Of a stretch of 64,000 bases of DNA, positions 12,481 to 20,934 are shown piece after piece. Within the stretch, counting starts at the first letter, position 1. Every line of letters begins with the position of its first letter. The stretch spans positions 13,880-77,879 of the forward strand of contig JBBISL010000001.1 in the NCBI GenBank assembly GCA_037441285.1, given 5' to 3'. The DNA comes from a candidate division WOR-3 bacterium. GTDB taxonomy: Bacteria; Hydrothermota; Tepidihabitantia; Tepidihabitantales; Tepidihabitantaceae. A program made the position numbers and the translations under genes. The notes beneath the pieces were generated by a model. It was not told the origin of the DNA. It saw only the letters and a list, made by a program, of their open reading frames with translations, and did not search any database.

Positions 12481-14481
12481 TCACCTCGTTATTATTATCC
12501 GCAGCGGCTGAGCACCGTCAAAGCGGACAAAATATACCCCGGGACTGACCTTATTCCCATTCCGGTCTTTCCCGTTCCAGAGCAACTGGTTGCCTAATAC
12601 CGGTAAGTTGGCAACGAGTTGTCCGCTCAGGTCAAAAATTTTTAGCGCCCCACTCTGTGCTGCATAGTTGGTTGTAAATCTTACTGGCAAGGCGGTAGGG
12701 TTACAGTGGGGTTTAATAACAACCGGCTCGGGTGCTTGATGTTGGGACGTGCTGATGCCAACATTGCTTACCCCTTCTATCGCATCAAGATGAAACTCGC
12801 CCGAGGCGGTGACTTTTATGTAGCGGGCGCTGTCCAAGCCAACAGCACCGATGTCCAACAGACTCTGGTTAGTGTTGGCGGTGCCAATATCGGTCCAGGG
12901 TCCTTGCCAATCATTCGCCCCTTGAACTAACGCCGTACCGCTGCCCGCGGAGCGATAGACAATTAAATCCATACCTTCTTGATTGCGAACCGGTGTATGC
13001 ATATCAAGACAGATGTACTTACCGTTGTCGAGCCGGAACCCTTCACCATCGTGAGGACCGAGCGCCCGAATCGGATAGGTCCGATTTACTGATGGGTTGA
13101 CATAGTTGTTGGAGATATTGCGGAAGGCAAAAAGCGGTGCTGATGGGTCCGGGGTTAACTGGACATCAACCGTTGTCACTGAGTCTCCGGAATCGGGTAC
13201 AACAACATCGATTAAAGTCGTTTCCCGGTATCCGGGCGCGCGAAATGTTAACTGATAGGTTCCGGGAAGATAAAAGCGGTGAAAGTCACCCAGTTCGGGG
13301 TCATTATAACTGAGCCAGTTTGCGGGACTGACCCAGATTTGGCAGGGAACCGGCTCTCCCGTTGTTGCATCGGTGACAGTACCCCTAATTCCCTGACCGG
13401 CGTGATGCATCAAGGCAAGCATTGCTGGCTTGTTCAAATTGAAAGTCGGGTCAATTTCAGAAGCAGGTGGGGTTTTCTCGATGTGCACTTCAATTGACCA
13501 GCCCATCATTCCATAGCCATAGTCAAAATCTTTGGTTGAGCCATTAATTAGATACATACTGTCCGCACCCTGCCCATAGGTGTAGTGGGTGAAGGCGTCG
13601 TAGCGGGCTGAGAGAAATTGAATCAGGGTCAGTTCCGGAATAGTGTTTTGATAAGAGAAGCAATAACTCCAGGGATGGGAGATGAAGGTAGTGCCGGCGT
13701 GATAAGAGACATAGGTTACTGCAGGATTACGCCAGATGTGGGCTAAAGCCGCTCTATTTTCCGGCTCGGAAAATGGGGCGGCGCCCTGACTTACTTCATC
13801 ACCCCACATCCAGCCCCAGTTACGATTTAAGTCAACATTGTTGCCATTGTAACGGCGGCCCGCGATATAGCCGTCGGGATTGTACATTGGTAGAAAGTAA
13901 ATTTCCCGGTCGTTCACCAGTCGGGTAACAAGGGTGTCGGTGCCGTAGTTTTGAACAAGGTATTTTATCAGTTCGAATACAATCGCCCAACCGATTTTCT
14001 CATCGCCATGGATATCTCCTTCGAAATGAACTACCGGCTCATTTTCATCGCTTTGGGGGTTGTCTGAGATTTTCATTATGAGGATTAAATTACCATTATA
14101 ACTCAAACCCAGCGTTTCCAGTTTGCAAATATTGGGGTTATTCTGGGCGATAATTGCCATTGTGTCCCGAAACTCGGTGTAGGTTAAATACCGACCGTCG
14201 CTGCCAGAGGCAAGGAAGTTTTGCTCGTATACCCTGGTAATGTCTCGGGTAAGAATTTCAATTGAATAACCGCTACTCCTTAATTTATTCTGTTCTTCTA
14301 CCGTTGCTTCAGCTACTACACCCTTGTTGTCAATGTAGTTGACAATTACTCCGATTTTTTCTAATGCGCGCATCTCATTGCGACCGGCTCCTACAATCCG
14401 TACAAGGTCTCTGGACTTGTCAATATGGGCACTCGCCATGGTAAGGGTTGTAAAGATAAAAAAAACAATCCTTGGTTTCAT
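12481..14481 (-). CDS. Secreted M14 zinc carboxypeptidase with C-terminal FlgD-Ig/T9SS-like domain
   Basis: HGDE, NPDG...RYNGNNVDLNRNW, FSEPE and YH motifs. C-terminal LWNGKDRNGNKVSPGVYFVR. Start chosen at ATG 14481 (AAGGAG RBS, signal peptide follows). Confidence 0.9.
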   Translation of the reverse strand: MKPRIVFFIFTTLTMASAHIDKSRDLVRIVGAGRNEMRALEKIGVIVNYIDNKGVVAEATVEEQNKLRSSGYSIEILTRDITRVYEQNFLASGSDGRYLTYTEFRDTMAIIAQNNPNICKLETLGLSYNGNLILIMKISDNPQSDENEPVVHFEGDIHGDEKIGWAIVFELIKYLVQNYGTDTLVTRLVNDREIYFLPMYNPDGYIAGRRYNGNNVDLNRNWGWMWGDEVSQGAAPFSEPENRAALAHIWRNPAVTYVSYHAGTTFISHPWSYCFSYQNTIPELTLIQFLSARYDAFTHYTYGQGADSMYLINGSTKDFDYGYGMMGWSIEVHIEKTPPASEIDPTFNLNKPAMLALMHHAGQGIRGTVTDATTGEPVPCQIWVSPANWLSYNDPELGDFHRFYLPGTYQLTFRAPGYRETTLIDVVVPDSGDSVTTVDVQLTPDPSAPLFAFRNISNNYVNPSVNRTYPIRALGPHDGEGFRLDNGKYICLDMHTPVRNQEGMDLIVYRSAGSGTALVQGANDWQGPWTDIGTANTNQSLLDIGAVGLDSARYIKVTASGEFHLDAIEGVSNVGISTSQHQAPEPVVIKPHCNPTALPVRFTTNYAAQSGALKIFDLSGQLVANLPVLGNQLLWNGKDRNGNKVSPGVYFVRFDGAQPLRIIITR

Positions 14482-14559
14482 CAATACTCCTTTCAGGACC
14501 ATATTTTAAATGATATTGCGGTTCAAGTAATTGTCAAAATAATTGTTATTCGACATGTC

Positions 14560-14581
14560 AATGTCATATTAATGTCATATT
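14560..14581. promoter_or_regulatory. 11-bp tandem direct repeat AATGTCATATT x2 (Pho-box/OmpR-family-like site)
   Basis: Exact tandem repeat with TGTCA cores 11 bp apart. Further TGTCA at 14532 and 14556. Confidence 0.45.
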
Positions 14582-14621
14582 AGAGTAAGAGTAATGGTTG
14601 TTTTAACCTGTCGCAATTTGT

Positions 14622-14646
14622 TAACATATTGATTTTGTGTTAGTTA
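14622..14646. promoter_or_regulatory. IHF-like site (TAAC-N17-GTTA)
   Basis: The reverse strand contains AATCAATATGTTA, an exact WATCAANNNNTTR match. Confidence 0.55.
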
Positions 14647-14708
14647 TTGTCCTTGACGCACTTTAGTAAGTGCGGTCGCATTAAACAATTTTGTTTCGGT
14701 TGTTGTTC

Positions 14709-14733
14709 TAACTTATTATTTTTTTATATGTTA
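14709..14733. promoter_or_regulatory. Second IHF-like site (TAAC-N17-GTTA) just upstream of the sigma54 promoter
   Basis: TAACTTATTATTTTTTTATATGTTA has the same 25-bp geometry and lies about 20-45 bp upstream of the -24 box. Confidence 0.45.
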
Positions 14734-14750
14734 GAATTTCAGGCTGTTGG

Positions 14751-14766
14751 TGGCACAGATAATGCA
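14751..14766 (+). promoter_or_regulatory. Sigma54 (RpoN) -24/-12 promoter
   Basis: TGGCACAGATAATGCA versus consensus TGGCAC-N5-TTGCW. GG and GC are exactly 10 nt apart. Intergenic, with AT-rich IHF-like sites upstream. Confidence 0.7.
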
Positions 14767-14876
14767 TTTAATGGCTTTCGGTGTTTTTAATAAGAAACGG
14801 GAAGGGGTTAGGTGAAATTGACAGAGTTCTGTTTAATTTTTGTCAATAAGTTTGCTCTTTACAAGCGGGAGTTTTT

Positions 14877-15463
14877 GGGTCCACCGGGCTGCCTCATAAA
14901 TTGAGTACAATTCTGTAAGACGGGTAGCTACGGAGTCGAGAGGAAGCGCATTGTTCTCTCTGCTCTCTGTTCCGTTGCCTTTGAGGCGCACCCGAAATAT
15001 TAGTACTCCATAGTTTACTCGTCTTCAAAATTGGTGGGTTGCGGAAGGAGGGATACCATTATCCCTTTTGGGAAGGAGGGATAATGACCCAAAGATAAGC
15101 GGACCCCGGATGGTAGTTGGTAAAATGAAGGAGCAGAACAAAAAGAAGAGAACCTTTGACCGAACTCGAGACAAGTAAATGCTCCTTAAAGGCCGGAGAA
15201 GTTAAGGTTTAACCAGTAACCTTCGGGGTCCGCCTTAAGATTATCTCCTGGGGCCGGCATCTTAGCCTCCTTCTTGGGATTTTGTAAGCCCACGCCCAAG
15301 TCCTACCATAATCGGCCCCTTTTTCTACGCCCGGTGGGCCCCATTATTTGAAGGAGCTGCGGTACGCCTGAAGGGTGTTCTATACCTTTTTAAATGGGGA
15401 GAGCATGCCGCCTTTTTAAAATATCAGGCACTCTGGAACGCTCACAGGGTAGCCGCGGCTCCT
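14877..15463 (+). ncRNA. Candidate large structured non-coding RNA or giant 5' leader (family unrecognised)
   Basis: Nested helices read by eye: 14877-14889/15329-15341, 14908-14936/15005-15033, 15034-15046/15280-15293, 15071-15079/15266-15274, 15099-15110/15222-15233, 15128-15135/15180-15187, 15352-15363/15452-15463 and 15373-15382/15434-15443. Non-Watson-Crick positions are mostly G-U on the + strand. No long ORF. Confidence 0.65.
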
Positions 15464-15495
15464 GTAAGATTTACCGGGGGAGAAGGAGGAAAACG

Positions 15496-17451
15496 ATGTT
15501 GAGGGTAAAGGGGTGTAGGTTCAAATATTTTACTTTTACTCTTTTGATGCTCATTGCCTTTGGTGGCTCTTGCCTTAAGCCACCAGCATTGCCGCAATGG
15601 GATGTCAGTCTGAAAATACCAGTTTATCAGCGAACGATTCGTTTAGGTGAACTTCTGTCAAACAGTGAAAAGTTCCAGATTCAGCCTGATTCATCTTTTG
15701 TAATCAATCTTACCCATCAATGGGGGCCCGTGGCGGTTGATAACGCTGTTTCTTTGCTTGCGATTGAAGAGAGAGAAAAAATCGGGTTGGCGGATTTCGT
15801 TTTTTTCAATTTAGGCAGCGGTAGAGATGGAATAAGCTGTGAGGAAATTTTTGGCCCGATTCCCGATTCGGGTTTGAAGTTACAGGTTGAGCCGTTTAGC
15901 AATAATTTTCAGAAGCACTGCGTTATAGAGAATATTCAGACTGTTGACATTCTCGAAGGTGTGGTTATTGTGCGACTCGAAAATCGCACACCGCTCAGTT
16001 TTGATTCGATTGATATCAAACTATTGGGGACGGTAGTCCATCTCGGCGGTATTAGAGCCGGAGAGTTCCAGGAAGAGAAGTTAAGATTGGGAGGAGCAAG
16101 GGCGGTTAACCCAATTGATTTCGATGTTGTTGTTCATTCGATGGGGAGTGGTCGGGATACAGTAAGAATTTTCCCTCAGGATAGTCTTGTGATAAACATT
16201 GAACCGGAGTCACTTAAAATTGGAGGCGGCCGGTTAAAAGTTGTTGATGCTCAAGCCGAGAAAAAAGTAGAAATAAGGATGGTCGCCCGCAATCCTTTGA
16301 GAATTGACAGTCTTGTTCTATCACAAGGACAGTGCGTTTTCACGGTGGGTAACCGTTTGCCGGCAGCAATAAATCTAAACTATGAGTTTCGTAAGATTGG
16401 TGTTAGTTCGTCCCGGACAGTTGAGGCCGGAGAAGGGATGACGGCTGAATTCAACCTGGCCGAGGTTGGAATCGACAATTTACGGAAAACGGGTGGAATA
16501 CTCGAACTTCAGACGCGGATAAAGTTCGACTCCCGAGGAGAATTTGTTGATGTGACAAAAGATTGTGCGGTGGACATCGGATATGTAATTCTGGACGCTA
16601 AACCGCGATTTCTTGTCGGGATGTTTCGGGAACCAGTGTATGTTTTTTCCCATGTTGAGACCTTACCCGAATTAGTACCTTTTAATTTGCACGGCGTACG
16701 GTTTTCCACAGCACAGCTGGTGTTGGCAGGAGAAAATGGTGTTGGTTTTCCGATGGATGTCTTTGTTGCTTTAAAGGCGATAAAGAATCAGCAAATAGTG
16801 GCGACCGTTGAAGATGTGATTACCGTAATGCCCGGACAAAGAAACCAACCCGGTACTTTTGAGCGCATGTTTCCGATAACTACGCTACTTAACACCGGAC
16901 CGGATTTTATCACCTGCGAATACAATGTCCGGATGAGAGGTTACGGTCGATTTGAGAGTGGACAGTCTGTTTCCGGGACGGCGGTTTTGAATGTTCCAAT
17001 GCGAGTGGCATTTGTGCCGGATACGGTAATTTTGCCCGATAAAAGGATTGAATTGTCCGATGGAGAACGGCAATCGGTGCAAAACTATCTTGTTGATGGC
17101 CAAGCAGGAATCAGGTTGAAGACGGCACTGCCGTTTGGGATGAATGGGCGGCTGGTGTTAAAACCAGGTTCTTTGAGCGAACCGAATGTTCTTGTTGACT
17201 CCGTTGCAATTCCATTTGTTGTACCGGCCGGGGTGGTTAACAACCAGGGGAGATGTGTTGCCGAGCGGGATACCGCAATCTCAGTTTGTCTTGATAGCAT
17301 GGCGGTTACCGTTTTCCGGAGTTACCCGTTGAGTGCCAGATTGATATTCGAGTTACCGGCAACCGATACAGTGGTTGTTTATACCAATGACCAGATAAAA
17401 CTGGACGCAACTGTGGAAGTCCGAATACGGGTTAATCACAGTCCCAAATAA
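15496..17451 (+). CDS. Large beta-rich putative outer-membrane lipoprotein of unknown function
   Basis: AAGGAGG RBS before ATG 15496 (track start 15394 rejected). Signal peptide ends GGS-C, followed by PQWDVSLKIP. Sequence is beta-strand-rich. Confidence 0.75.
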   Translation: MLRVKGCRFKYFTFTLLMLIAFGGSCLKPPALPQWDVSLKIPVYQRTIRLGELLSNSEKFQIQPDSSFVINLTHQWGPVAVDNAVSLLAIEEREKIGLADFVFFNLGSGRDGISCEEIFGPIPDSGLKLQVEPFSNNFQKHCVIENIQTVDILEGVVIVRLENRTPLSFDSIDIKLLGTVVHLGGIRAGEFQEEKLRLGGARAVNPIDFDVVVHSMGSGRDTVRIFPQDSLVINIEPESLKIGGGRLKVVDAQAEKKVEIRMVARNPLRIDSLVLSQGQCVFTVGNRLPAAINLNYEFRKIGVSSSRTVEAGEGMTAEFNLAEVGIDNLRKTGGILELQTRIKFDSRGEFVDVTKDCAVDIGYVILDAKPRFLVGMFREPVYVFSHVETLPELVPFNLHGVRFSTAQLVLAGENGVGFPMDVFVALKAIKNQQIVATVEDVITVMPGQRNQPGTFERMFPITTLLNTGPDFITCEYNVRMRGYGRFESGQSVSGTAVLNVPMRVAFVPDTVILPDKRIELSDGERQSVQNYLVDGQAGIRLKTALPFGMNGRLVLKPGSLSEPNVLVDSVAIPFVVPAGVVNNQGRCVAERDTAISVCLDSMAVTVFRSYPLSARLIFELPATDTVVVYTNDQIKLDATVEVRIRVNHSPK

Positions 17452-17453
17452 CC

Positions 17454-18653
17454 ATGTTGAATATTCTTTGTTTAACGCTTGGTGTCTTGAATCCCGTTTT
17501 TAGTACAGGAAGTAATGCCCTTTTGATAAATCCGGCAAACCTCGGGTTGACAGAAAACCCGATTTTTTCCTGCGAGATTGTTGATTTGAACGCCGGGTTG
17601 GAAAACAACGCCTTCAACATCGTCCAATATAATCGTTACAGCGGAGCGTTTATTGACGAGACGGCAAAAAAATTACTATTAAGGTCGGTACCCAAAAGCG
17701 GACTCGCAATTAACACGGGATTTAATGGGGCAATGCCCCGGTTCAGTTACCGTAATTTTGCGGTTTCGGTCCAAAGCGATGCCGGTGCCGAAGTGGTAGT
17801 GCCCAAAGACCTGATTGACTTAATTCTAAATGGCAATGAGTTAGACCGGATGTACAGTTCAAATGGTGCGCGGGCAAAGTTGACCGCCCTATTGCGGTCA
17901 GGTATAGGAACGGGCAAACGCTGGGGGAATTTTTTAGTAGGCGCATCTTTTAATTATATCCGAGGTCTGTTCTATAGTCAGCTTCTTAACCATGAGGCAC
18001 GGATTGTTACAACTCGGGAAGGTTTTACGGGCGAAGGCTGTGTTGGTTATTTGAAAGCACAGGGTGGTAATGGCTGGAGCATTGATGTGGGTGGTGCCTA
18101 TCAGAAAGCTCGACTTTACCTTGGGCTGTCGGTATTTGACCTGAGTCCTGGGATAGTGTGGCACGAACAGGTTGAGGAGGGGTACTGGACATTCAGGGTT
18201 GATTCAGTCAATCTTTACGAACTATTTGCGGGCTCAGATAAGATTTACTCTCGGGTAAATCGGGTCAGTAGTAATGAGATTTTAACTTACTTACCGATCA
18301 AATTAAATATGAGCATAGGTTATCAAATCCAACCGGGTGTTAATGCCGGTGTTGTTTTGCATCCGGTTTTGGACTTAGAACCCTTCGGTTTAAGTCGGTT
18401 CACTGCCGAACTCATATCAGAAGTGACAATCAAGAAACTGGTGCCGATTTGTTTAACCGTCGGATATGATAACCGCTTTGGGGTTATTACGGGCATAAAC
18501 ACCGGTTTAAATCTGAGAGGTTGGAGTTTTCAGTTGGGAGTTAAGGAGGTTGGTGGCCTTTTGTTTTTCGGAAAGGGGGCTGAGGTCAGATTGGCAATCG
18601 GTTATGCGGTTTTCCAAAGAGCGGCAGTTCCTAAATCGGTTATTAAAATCTAA
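17454..18653 (+). CDS. Putative outer-membrane beta-barrel protein (DUF5723/TraF-like)
   Basis: Signal peptide, N-terminal NPANLG motif, alternating amphipathic strands (e.g. GWSIDVGGAY). Starts 2 bp after the lipoprotein gene. Confidence 0.7.
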   Translation: MLNILCLTLGVLNPVFSTGSNALLINPANLGLTENPIFSCEIVDLNAGLENNAFNIVQYNRYSGAFIDETAKKLLLRSVPKSGLAINTGFNGAMPRFSYRNFAVSVQSDAGAEVVVPKDLIDLILNGNELDRMYSSNGARAKLTALLRSGIGTGKRWGNFLVGASFNYIRGLFYSQLLNHEARIVTTREGFTGEGCVGYLKAQGGNGWSIDVGGAYQKARLYLGLSVFDLSPGIVWHEQVEEGYWTFRVDSVNLYELFAGSDKIYSRVNRVSSNEILTYLPIKLNMSIGYQIQPGVNAGVVLHPVLDLEPFGLSRFTAELISEVTIKKLVPICLTVGYDNRFGVITGINTGLNLRGWSFQLGVKEVGGLLFFGKGAEVRLAIGYAVFQRAAVPKSVIKI

Positions 18654-18699: not shown

Positions 18700-18772
18700 G
18701 GGGCTGTAGCTCAGTTGGGAGAGCACCTGCTTTGCAAGCAGGGGGTCGCCCGTTCGAATCGGGTCAGCTCCA
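18700..18772 (+). tRNA. tRNA-Ala (TGC), CCA not encoded
   Basis: GGGGCTG/CAGCTCC acceptor stem with G3:U70, D arm GCTCAGTTGGGAGAGC, anticodon arm CCTGC-TTTGCAA-GCAGG, T loop TTCGAAT. Confidence 0.97.
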
Positions 18773-18810: not shown

Positions 18811-20934
18811 TTAAAGCAAAATCCGGGCGTCAATCACCAGCGCCCCTTTACCTTCTTCATAAACAAAGAGCGGGTTGATATCAATTTCATCAAACTCCGG
18901 AAAATCCATGACCAACTGCGATAGGCGCTGAATCGACTCTTTAATCTTCTGTTTATCGCGTGCTGGTTTTCCCCGGAATGGTTCAAGCAGGCGATGCGCC
19001 CTGATACCGGTAATCATTGACTCGGCCGAGAGGTCGTTTACCGGCGCAACCCGGAAGACAACATCTTTAAGGACTTCAACTAAAATTCCCCCCAGACCAA
19101 ACATCAACAGCGGACCAAAATGGGGGTCGCGTTTCATCCCGAGAATTGTTTCCAATCCACCGCTCGGTGCCATCTTTTGGACCATTACACCCCAGATTTC
19201 GGCATCGGGCTTTTTGTTTTTAACTGTTTCCAGCATTGCGGTATAGGACTCTTCGAGTTGCTCGTTACTGTTGATATTGATGCGGACACCACCGAAATCG
19301 GTTTTGTGAATGATGTCCGGAGAAACAATTTTAATCGCAACCGGATACCCGATTTTCTGGGCGATTGTTAACGCCTCAGTAATGTTGGTGGCGAGTTCGA
19401 ATTCCGCCACCGGTATGCCGTAGGCTTTCAGGATTTGATGGCATTCAGGTTCAGAGATGAATGGGCGGGGTCGCTTTTTTGCCCGGGTAACAATCTGGCG
19501 TACTTGCTCAGGGCGAACATCGGTAAATTTGACAACCTCTCCGGGGGGACGGCGGCTTAATCGGCCGAATTCAGCCATCGTTGCCAGGGCGCGAGCCGCA
19601 TTTTCGGGAAAGAGAAAATGAGGGATTCGAACGCGGAGTAAGGCACGCCGGATTGCGGTATTGTCACCCATTGTCTGAATGCAGGCGATGATGGGCTTGT
19701 CTGTATTTTGAGCTTCTTCGGCGATGACATTGGCAACATCAATCGCTTCTGCCATTACGGTTGGTGTCCATATCGGGATTATGCCGTCGATATTTTCGTC
19801 CTGAAGGAGGATACGAAATGCGGCACGATAGCGATTGGCATCACCATCGCCGATGATATCGACCGGGTTGTTAATCGCAGCTGCTGGGGGCAAAACCTTT
19901 TTAAGTTCGGTGCGGGTTTTTTCGGTTAAAGGTGCGATTTTTAGTCCGTATCGCACACAGGCATCGGTCGCCATAATTCCCACTCCACCGGCGTTGGTGA
20001 TAATGGCGACTCTGGGACCGCGCGGCGGAGGCTGGTAGGCAAGGACGGCGGCTTTGGCGATTAACTCGCTTACTGTGTCAACTCGCAGGATGCGTGCCTG
20101 GGCAAAAAAGGCGTTGTATGCCTCGTCTGAACCGGCAAGGGCACCGGTGTGGGAAGATGCGGCACGGGCGCCTTCGCTTGTTCGGCCCGCTTTGATGGCA
20201 AGAATCGGTTTGGGCCTTTTGGCGTGGGAGGTTATTTCTCGAGCAATGCGCATAAATTCCGGCGGGTTAACTAAATCTTCAAGATAGAGCGCGATGACAT
20301 CAGTTTCTTCGTCGTCCTTCAAATATTCGAGCAGGTCACACTCGTTTATGTCCGCTTTATTACCAATTGAGATGAATTTAGAAAGACCAACCTCTTCGGA
20401 TTCGGCATATTCGAGTGCGTTGACCCCGACCGCACCGGATTGTGAAATCAGGGCGATGTTTCCGGTTCGGGGCATTACACGACCGAAAGTGGTGTTCAAT
20501 CTTACTGCCGGACTGGTGTTTATCATTCCAAAGCAGTTTGGTCCGATAAGGCGAATACCCCAGGTGCGAGCTCTTTCCTTAACCGCTTGCTCGAGTGCCG
20601 CACCGGTGGCACCGAGTTCTTTGAACCCGGCCGAGATGACAATGGCACCTTTTACCTTCTTCTGGCCACATTCAGCCAGAACCGCAGGCACGGTTATTGC
20701 CGGGACAATGAGTATCGCAAGGTCGATTTCGTCTTCGATATCAAGAATCGATGGGTAGGCTTTTACACCGAGGATGCTCTTTGCCCGGGGATTAACGGGA
20801 AAAACGACGCCGGTGTAACCGTTAAACAGGATATTGGCGAACAGGGCGCGTCCTACCGAACCTTCTTTGCTCGAGGCACCGATGACCGCAACAGAACGGG
20901 GCTTGAAGATAAAGTCTAAGTTATTTGCTTTCAT
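18811..20934 (-). CDS. ADP-forming acetate/acyl-CoA ligase, alpha-beta fusion
   Basis: CoA-binding SVAVIGAS, GPNCFG, SQSGA, SHTGALAG (catalytic His retained), TNAGGVG, and ATP-grasp IIHKTDFGGV and DINPL. Confidence 0.92.
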   Translation of the reverse strand: MKANNLDFIFKPRSVAVIGASSKEGSVGRALFANILFNGYTGVVFPVNPRAKSILGVKAYPSILDIEDEIDLAILIVPAITVPAVLAECGQKKVKGAIVISAGFKELGATGAALEQAVKERARTWGIRLIGPNCFGMINTSPAVRLNTTFGRVMPRTGNIALISQSGAVGVNALEYAESEEVGLSKFISIGNKADINECDLLEYLKDDEETDVIALYLEDLVNPPEFMRIAREITSHAKRPKPILAIKAGRTSEGARAASSHTGALAGSDEAYNAFFAQARILRVDTVSELIAKAAVLAYQPPPRGPRVAIITNAGGVGIMATDACVRYGLKIAPLTEKTRTELKKVLPPAAAINNPVDIIGDGDANRYRAAFRILLQDENIDGIIPIWTPTVMAEAIDVANVIAEEAQNTDKPIIACIQTMGDNTAIRRALLRVRIPHFLFPENAARALATMAEFGRLSRRPPGEVVKFTDVRPEQVRQIVTRAKKRPRPFISEPECHQILKAYGIPVAEFELATNITEALTIAQKIGYPVAIKIVSPDIIHKTDFGGVRININSNEQLEESYTAMLETVKNKKPDAEIWGVMVQKMAPSGGLETILGMKRDPHFGPLLMFGLGGILVEVLKDVVFRVAPVNDLSAESMITGIRAHRLLEPFRGKPARDKQKIKESIQRLSQLVMDFPEFDEIDINPLFVYEEGKGALVIDARILL

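Follow-up and report, generated by a model that had tools for sequence, protein, structure and literature searches.

Intricately structured large RNAs are rare in bacteria, where they are represented by the ribosomal RNAs, RNase P RNA, the group I and group II introns, OLE, GOLLD, ROOL and raiA. The element considered here lies in a stretch of 64,000 nucleotides (nt) from the genome of a candidate division WOR-3 bacterium (GenBank assembly GCA_037441285.1, contig JBBISL010000001.1, positions 13,880 to 77,879; hereafter the window, whose own numbering is used throughout), in a non-coding gap ahead of a predicted lipoprotein gene. It can be regarded with high confidence as a real, conserved, sigma54-linked structured RNA that belongs to no described family. 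An earlier reading of the window, made from its letters only, had proposed a structured RNA of ~590 nt in this gap. Counted from the promoter to the 3′ hairpin, however, the predicted transcript comes to about 690 nt here, and the members of the family probably range from about 350 to 700 nt.

OLE lies within an operon and is transcribed together with the neighbouring genes. Two accounts present OLE (RF01071, ~600 nt) as an RNA of unknown biochemical function, whose conserved fold is intricate and contains many highly conserved nucleotides (PMC9723947, PMC12054373). The WOR-3 element resembles it in size and in possessing an intricate, conserved fold with highly conserved nucleotides. By contrast, the OLE model does not match the element, OLE occurs in Bacillota and the element in a WOR-3 lineage, and the element has a sigma54-type promoter and no adjoining oapA-like gene. 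GOLLD and ROOL are often located beside tRNA genes. One source counts both among the large ornate bacterial RNAs that emerged from comparative genomics (PMC12286853). Their models do not match the element either, which differs from them in being chromosomal, single-copy and syntenic within one order, and not phage-borne.

CrcZ and CrcY of Pseudomonas are sponge RNAs of about 400 nt, dependent on sigma54 and CbrB, which carry A-rich Hfq/Crc sites. The element shares with CrcZ a large size, repeated short motifs and a sigma54 promoter preceded by activator sites, but it has no Rfam match, its repeated motifs are CCUCC/GGAGG instead of A-rich sites, and it is larger, with long co-varying helices and a position ahead of a lipoprotein gene. 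RNAIII of Staphylococcus aureus is a multi-hairpin, peptide-encoding RNA of 514 nt that depends on a signal-responsive activator and pairs through C-rich loops with Shine-Dalgarno regions. The likeness here lies in a large multi-hairpin RNA under an activator, with C-rich loops facing Shine-Dalgarno regions; the two RNAs differ in that there is no homology, the element contains no conserved open reading frame (ORF), and any trans targets of it are hypothetical. With riboswitches and attenuators the element shares the succession of structured RNA, hairpin with U-run and ribosome-binding site (RBS), seen in two families of relatives (f2 and f4 below). It is, by contrast, several times larger, matches no aptamer model, and is kept in some genomes without the gene that it would regulate.

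A Conserved Fold on the Plus Strand

The fold is supported by comparison of homologues. Removal of duplicates left 36 sequences less than 97% identical, of which the 31 full-length ones were aligned; the pairs examined, 98 in number, are those of the RNAalifold consensus of this alignment. Covariation was assessed by counting pair changes against 500 shuffles and against controls with slid partners, not by R-scape, and the sequences counted are related to one another, not independent. Pairing is retained in 90.4% of cells, compared with 83.4% after shuffling and 39.7-48.4% once the 3′ partners have been slid. Both sides have changed in 52 of the 98 pairs (shuffled mean 31.7), and the covariation score is 0.287, against 0.171 in the shuffles and at most 0.115 with slid partners. 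None of the 500 shuffles reaches any of the five measures of covariation. A search for covariation in relatives had been suggested in the sequence-only reading, and its outcome is positive.

From 5′ to 3′ on the + strand, the RNA is predicted from the promoter geometry to begin near 14777 with a 5′ leader (14777-14854), which in most relatives of family f1 forms a long hairpin, GAAGGGGGUGCC ... GGCACCCCCUUC, with UCCUCCGUUUGGCGA in its loop. Then follows the conserved motif CUCUUUACAA (14855-14864; consensus UUCUUUGAMAA), present in 28 of the 28 genomes examined, the short form of f4 among them, and also in the form of f3. The closing helix P1 pairs GGGUCCACCGGGC (14877-14889) with GCCCGGUGGGCCC (15329-15341), exactly as first proposed; it is part of the minimum-free-energy (MFE) fold, and 12 of its 14 pairs are compensated. 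Inside it, the 5′ domain (14908-15033) was described as a stem of 14908-14936 with 15005-15033. This stem is found in the MFE fold, and the portion conserved in relatives is P2 (14919-14935/15006-15023), with 17 of 19 pairs compensated and a conserved interior, UCUCUCUGC.... The domain is followed by a G-rich, Shine-Dalgarno-like stretch, AUUGGUGGGUUGCGGAAGGAGGGAUACC (15031-15057), that is conserved in f1.

The central rod occupies 15099-15233. Its base, GCGGACCCCGGA (15099-15110) with UUCGGGGUCCGC (15222-15233), and its terminal helix, AAGGAGCA/UGCUCCUU with a 44-nt loop, are both present and recovered in the MFE fold. Since MAFFT aligns the middle of the RNA poorly and misaligns the variable rod, the rod base was judged by a scripted search for complements instead of by pair counts. 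GCGGAC/GUCCGC is conserved at the base, where a 6-nt complement of the 3′ strand (G-U pairs tolerated) is found in 24 of the 31 sequences, in 22 of them of the GCGGA type. The extension of the base varies by lineage and is still complementary (CCCCGG/UCGGGG, CCGCCC/GGGCGG, ACUGCAAC/GUUGCAGU, AUACCGCA/UGCGGUAU). The three inner rod pairings of the original model, 15034-46/15280-93, 15071-79/15266-74 and 15088-98/15241-52, are also part of the MFE fold; they are nevertheless left unsupported, because they cross the local core hairpin that co-varies in relatives.

This core hairpin (15250-15319) is better conserved than any other part of the family. Its outer helix, GGGGCCG (15250-56) with CGGCCCC (15313-19), closes an internal loop containing CCUCC (15266-15270), and its inner hairpin pairs CUUGGG (15273-78) with CCCAAG (15295-15300). 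CCUCC never varies in the alignment of 31 sequences or in f4, and the consensus fold leaves it unpaired; f3 has UCUCC. Beyond P1 stands the separate 3′ hairpin of ~110 nt (15353-15462), with invariant CCUG/CAGG and AUGCC blocks; it too had been anticipated, forms in the MFE fold, and has 13 of 33 pairs changed on both sides. A recount of the core and 3′ hairpin in 25 sequences of f1, f3 and f4 gives 20 of 43 pairs compensated against 9.5 in shuffles, in an alignment fitted to a covariance model, which favours structure in that recount. The outer core helix shows a change from C-G to U-A/U-G, and across these three families four of the six pairs of the inner hairpin change on both sides.

All forms share the upstream sites, the sigma54 box, UUCUUUGAMAA, P1, the core hairpin and the 3′ hairpin. 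The remaining parts vary: the whole 5′ domain is absent from f4, whose form measures about 350 nt, the rod differs in length and is absent from f3, and in f2 and the genus g9 the core is separated from the 3′ hairpin by an insertion. The 5′ strand of P1 in f2 and f4 includes (A)UCACCUCCUUA, which pairs with a GGAGG-rich strand and equals 10-11 nt of the 3′ end of 16S rRNA, which reads GGAUCACCUCCUUUCUA in three relatives. A U-run (at least 6 U in the 10 nt past the 3′ hairpin) is found in 13 of the 36 homologues. The source genome has 4 U there, and an intrinsic terminator scan of 14400-15700 finds no terminator-like site.

The folding energy agrees with an RNA read from the + strand. Between 14860 and 15480 this strand folds to -234.8 kcal/mol with a z-score of -6.63, none of 20 dinucleotide shuffles being as good, and the - strand has a z-score of -3.60. 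Over the predicted transcript (14777-15470) the z-scores are -4.09 and -3.04, respectively; the + strand reaches -248.3, against -242.6 for the best of 150 dinucleotide shuffles. The + strand fold of this interval holds 35 G-U pairs and the - strand fold 18, and conserved G-U pairs are numerous on the + strand. The + strand is the RNA strand. This accords with the first proposal, which had taken the G-U pairs as a sign of selection at the RNA level and had suggested comparing the folding z-score with dinucleotide-shuffled controls. Overall, the promoter, the novelty and most of the helices claimed there stand, while its detailed model of the rod and its size needed correction.

Known Families and Coding Potential

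That the RNA has no recognisable family had been an impression drawn from missing hallmarks, and it is borne out by a search of Rfam 15. At gathering score, only a tRNA (18700-18772) passes in the whole window, and on 14500-15600 an E-value limit of 10 yields three matches at chance level: Plastid-psbA-2 (19 bits, threshold 55.8), Plastid-psbA-4 (17.7, threshold 56.8) and osmY (14.8, threshold 46.9). The Rfam 15 models without a match include those of OLE, ROOL, GOLLD, raiA, HEARO, 6S RNA, CrcZ, riboswitches and group I and II introns.

Several particular identities were considered and rejected. The RNase P RNA of the source genome (hereafter G000) is encoded elsewhere (G000:C17:17453-17821, 293 bits), as is its tmRNA (C3:62759-63112, 176 bits). 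A sponge of the CsrB/RsmZ type was dismissed, CsrA (PF02599) not being found in G000, which is 96.8% complete. A protein-coding region was likewise rejected: the longest ORF has no constant strand, frame or place in the 36 homologues (median 72 amino acids), and none is conserved in frame or position. The 6S model finds nothing in G000, but this negative is uninformative, since the same model detects only 5 of 14 control genomes.

It might still be argued that there is no new functional RNA at all, and that the region belongs to a known family from which it has diverged, codes for protein, or acts at the DNA level, for instance as a set of palindromes or a gene in decay. Members that have diverged strongly can escape the Rfam models, as the performance of the 6S model illustrates. 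The chance-level Rfam matches, the separate copies of RNase P RNA and tmRNA, the inconsistent ORFs, the stronger fold and richer G-U pairing of the + strand, and compensatory changes far above the controls all speak to the contrary and make this explanation extremely improbable. The parts of the literature consulted on non-coding RNA of WOR-3 and related topics contain no account of such an RNA, and deal instead with OLE, raiA and GOLLD/ROOL. The RNA is taken as previously undescribed and new at the level of the family; the broader category of large structured non-coding RNAs or leaders is known already.

Distribution in Relatives

In the labels used here, f1-f5 are families and g7-g13 genera. 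The element is single-copy in G000. Of the 66 genomes in the order, 28 are matched by a covariance model of its 3′ half (R1), which has no match in the 66 further genomes of the class. With divergent members added (R2), the model matches 30 of the 132 genomes of the class, all in the order of the window; G000 excluded, these fall into f1 (20/43), f2 (2/2), f3 (1/4) and f4 (6/6), with none in f5 (0/10) or elsewhere (0/66). Sampling of 151 genomes from the phylum gave 14 matches, every one inside the order, and none in the 124 genomes outside it. The RNA family is thus confined to four families of one order, with one copy per genome. These counts are those of the covariance models, because a count by BLAST (23/41) is inflated by a separate 26-nt element. 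An exact-pattern scan added 27 metagenome contigs and 6 contigs of metagenome-assembled genomes, the latter number being below the yield of the genome search.

Nine loci upstream of homologues of the lipoprotein gene, from f5 and other paralogues, were checked for five signals (sigma54 box, motif, upstream site, CCUCC and core start). Seven of the nine have none of them, one (L106) has a single TGTCGCA, and the f3 genome G030 has all five. G030 also holds a second, partial copy (L128, G030:C2:12931-13091), consisting of a part resembling the 5′ domain and a 3′ hairpin and located upstream of tRNA-Leu(UAG). In a pattern search, neither a sigma54 box nor an upstream site nor the motif is found with this copy.

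A Sigma54 Promoter with Upstream Sites

The sigma54 -24/-12 box noticed at first sight is found as TGGCAC-N5-ATGCA on the + strand (TGGCACAGATAATGCA, 14751-14766), with GG at 14752-53 and GC at 14764-65, and is conserved. Among the 35 homologues with sufficient upstream flank, 27 have the strict pattern TGG[CT]A[CT]-N5-NTGC, and all 35 have the strict or a looser form at the equivalent place. Upstream, also on the + strand, lie a distal site TGTCGCA (14609-14615) and a proximal site GGTCGCA (14674-14680), the latter conserved in homologues; both are presumed sites of an enhancer-binding protein. At least one TGTCGCA-like site is present in 35 of 35 homologues. Most have two, spaced by 65-68 bp, and in most the proximal one precedes the -24 element by about 75-85 bp. 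The conserved box and its upstream sites provide comparative support for enhancer control.

The sigma54-activator domain PF00158 has seven matches above 40 bits in G000, whose full-length activator genes number five, and no gene for an enhancer-binding protein is found in the flanks of 33 RNA loci. Among 50 sigma54-like sites in G000, six have a TGTCGCA-like site within 260 nt. Two such arrangements outside the window may be mentioned. At G000:C26, about 14874 (+), an inverted TGCGACA...GAGTCGCA stands upstream of a sigma54-like box, TGGCACGGTAAATGCA, and the next 447 nt or so downstream contain no ORF of at least 70 amino acids; this locus may be a second sigma54-driven non-coding RNA. At G000:C21, about 16731 (+), a sigma54-like box with a TGCGACA site directly follows a gene for an enhancer-binding protein and precedes a strong RBS, a proline-rich ORF of 18 codons and a hairpin.

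Gene Leader or RNA in Its Own Right

The sequence-only reading had offered two options, a new class of large non-coding RNA and an enhancer-controlled giant regulatory leader. That pair of options is well supported, and both remain. The interpretation tentatively adopted here, as one that may well prove right but falls short of being probable, is that the RNA is functional in its own right, possibly with a dual function, and acts through CCUCC and the G-rich stretch on ribosome-binding sites. An enhancer-binding protein would sit on the two TGTCGCA sites and activate sigma54 RNA polymerase at 14751-14766, so that transcription would start near 14777. The transcript would fold into the leader, UUCUUUGAMAA, P1 and then the 110-nt 3′ hairpin, with P1 enclosing the optional 5′ domain, the G-rich linker, the optional rod and the almost invariant core hairpin. 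In the source genome the RNA would be made as the first part of the transcript of the lipoprotein operon. Its working parts would be the unpaired, anti-Shine-Dalgarno-like CCUCC loop or loops and the Shine-Dalgarno-like G-rich stretch, which could pair with purine-rich ribosome-binding sites or with pyrimidine-rich partners, foremost the RBS just downstream. A sigma54 signal would thereby be converted into control of translation. In favour of this role for CCUCC are its invariance, its unpaired state and the identity of (A)UCACCUCCUUA in f2 and f4 with part of the 16S rRNA 3′ end.

The neighbourhood of the RNA speaks for a function of its own. No orthologue of the lipoprotein gene follows the RNA in seven of the 30 RNA-bearing genomes (G007, G009, G011, G019, G047, G058 and G062). 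In G011, G019 and G047, which belong to one genus, and in G007 and G009, the promoter, upstream sites and compensated helices are kept though the gene is gone. A tRNA-Ala(UGC) lies 109-130 nt after the RNA in G007, G011, G019 and G047, without the two genes that intervene in the source genome, and the linkage of RNA and tRNA is therefore older than those two genes or independent of them. The U-run behind the 3′ hairpin in 13 of the 36 homologues also counts in favour of an RNA that works without the gene.

Other observations weigh against the interpretation adopted here. The orthologue stands directly downstream, on the same strand, in 23 of the 30 genomes, with 28-110 nt between the RNA and the start codon. 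RNA and adjacent orthologue are jointly present or absent in most genera; in g12, g7 and most of g13 both have been lost. The start and end of the transcript, and its occurrence as a discrete RNA species, are predictions from the DNA. In the source genome the scan finds no terminator between the RNA and the gene, and physically the RNA would here be a 5′ leader. A scan of G000 for at least 11 nt complementary to the core loop returns 9 sites of 11-12 nt; chance predicts about as many, and specific trans targets are hence not indicated. Complementarity itself is weak evidence, because any strong RBS complements any CCUCC. Furthermore, the G-rich stretch does not keep its pairing with the core in g8 or f2.

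In one alternative the RNA is purely a cis-acting giant leader of the lipoprotein/DUF5723 operon that senses a ligand, a protein or temperature, and downstream expression would be decided by the conserved 3′ hairpin, which resembles a terminator in some lineages, or by pyrimidine tracts masking the RBS. It can draw, besides the synteny and joint losses, on the layout in f4 and f2, where the structured RNA is followed by a hairpin with U-run 28-40 nt before the RBS, and on the capacity of CCUCCUUCU in the core to pair with GAGAAGGAGG downstream. It has difficulty with the seven genomes that retain the RNA, with promoter, upstream sites and compensated helices, without the gene, four of them with tRNA-Ala next to it, and no Rfam aptamer model matches. 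To our knowledge, moreover, a length of 350-700 nt with many invariant loop nucleotides exceeds any described leader. A leader of this kind is considered rather unlikely.

The invariant nucleotides suggest a further alternative: an ornate RNA that binds protein or assembles with itself, as a scaffold or sponge comparable to the OLE ribonucleoprotein, CrcZ or the GOLLD/ROOL assemblies, with the invariant loops serving as contacts to protein or between RNAs instead of as base-pairing seeds. Never-varying blocks do occur in loops as well as helices (e.g., CCUG/CAGG and AUGCC within the 3′ hairpin, GCCCA within the core loop), the RNA is built of modules of which some are optional, and the 26-nt G-rich sequence at a second conserved locus suggests a shared partner. 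The proximity to a tRNA gene also recalls GOLLD and ROOL. However, no partner protein is conserved next door, where a secreted lipoprotein and a DUF5723 protein are encoded, and, with no CsrA found in the 96.8%-complete genome, a sponge of the CsrB type is rejected. On balance such a scaffold appears distinctly unlikely.

Returning to an RNA that acts on ribosome-binding sites, its boldest version would make it an enhancer-controlled mimic of the mRNA-docking site of the ribosome, displaying copies of the 16S rRNA 3′ tail in the form of CCUCC and, in f2 and f4, of (A)UCACCUCCUUA. This is a long shot. If true, the RNA would also display a built-in duplex of Shine-Dalgarno-like and anti-Shine-Dalgarno-like strands, and once switched on it would titrate the Shine-Dalgarno sequences of mRNAs or the proteins that handle the 16S tail, resetting translation initiation genome-wide. 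The G-rich 26-mer behind a clpB-like gene would then be part of the same network.

The G-Rich 26-mer at a Second Locus

The G-rich 26-mer of the RNA (15031-15057) recurs with 25 of 26 positions identical in most f1 genomes, including ones without the large RNA. The second locus (e.g., L028 about 2190-2260, and L113-L124) is located immediately beyond the 3′ end of a ClpB/ClpC-like gene. There a 12-bp hairpin with a co-varying stem (AGG/CCU vs. GGG/CCC) carries the 26-mer in its invariant loop of ~38 nt; on the strand of the clp gene this loop is C-rich and complementary to the G-rich stretch of the large RNA. A search of Rfam with this hairpin gives no match, and the clp-linked element is not found in the G000 assembly. 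In G007 about 200 nt separate the clp-linked G-rich element from a match to group II intron D1-D4 (59.3 bits; L029 2326-2502, G007:C1 about 2114325-2114501).

Neighbouring Genes

The gap that holds the RNA, 14503-15495, is the largest ORF-free gap of the window, as had been claimed; the remaining gaps between ORFs of at least 120-150 amino acids measure about 440 nt or less. It is flanked upstream by a gene for an M14 carboxypeptidase (12481-14502, - strand). Directly downstream of the RNA is the gene for the predicted lipoprotein of 651 amino acids (15496-17451, +), whose Shine-Dalgarno sequence AAGGAGG and ATG lie at 15483-15498. The product is predicted to be a lipoprotein from its N-terminal signal peptide and Cys. 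Pfam and NCBIfam searches with it give no match. A homologue search returns nine proteins, one of them labelled candidate division WOR-3 (33% identity), and a search of the Atlas only clusters labelled Bacteroidota and without a name.

The longest ORF of this gene opens at an ATG at 15394, within the 3′ hairpin of the RNA. The start with its Shine-Dalgarno sequence at 15496 is kept in relatives, which have equivalent TTG or GTG starts there, and automatic annotation could therefore overcall the 5′ end of the gene. Next follow, on the same strand, a gene for a DUF5723 protein (17454-18653; PF18990, E 8e-15) and, after this pair, the tRNA-Ala(UGC) identified by Rfam (18700-18772). The gene at 18811-20934 (-) resembles ADP-forming acetate/acyl-CoA ligases; its best model is 4-hydroxybutyrate-CoA ligase, at 745.6 bits, under the cut-off of 1300 bits.

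Significance

The few known classes of large RNA have repeatedly opened new biochemistry, and the present family offers a tractable case. It has a defined regulatory input, namely the sigma54 promoter with its conserved activator sites. It also comprises natural deletion variants, that of f4 without the 5′ domain and that of f3 without the rod, which together mark a core of ~350 nt suited to structural work. The almost invariant motifs that resemble the tail of 16S rRNA suggest a testable link to translation. More generally, uncultured lineages such as candidate division WOR-3 hold classes of RNA that are absent from Rfam.

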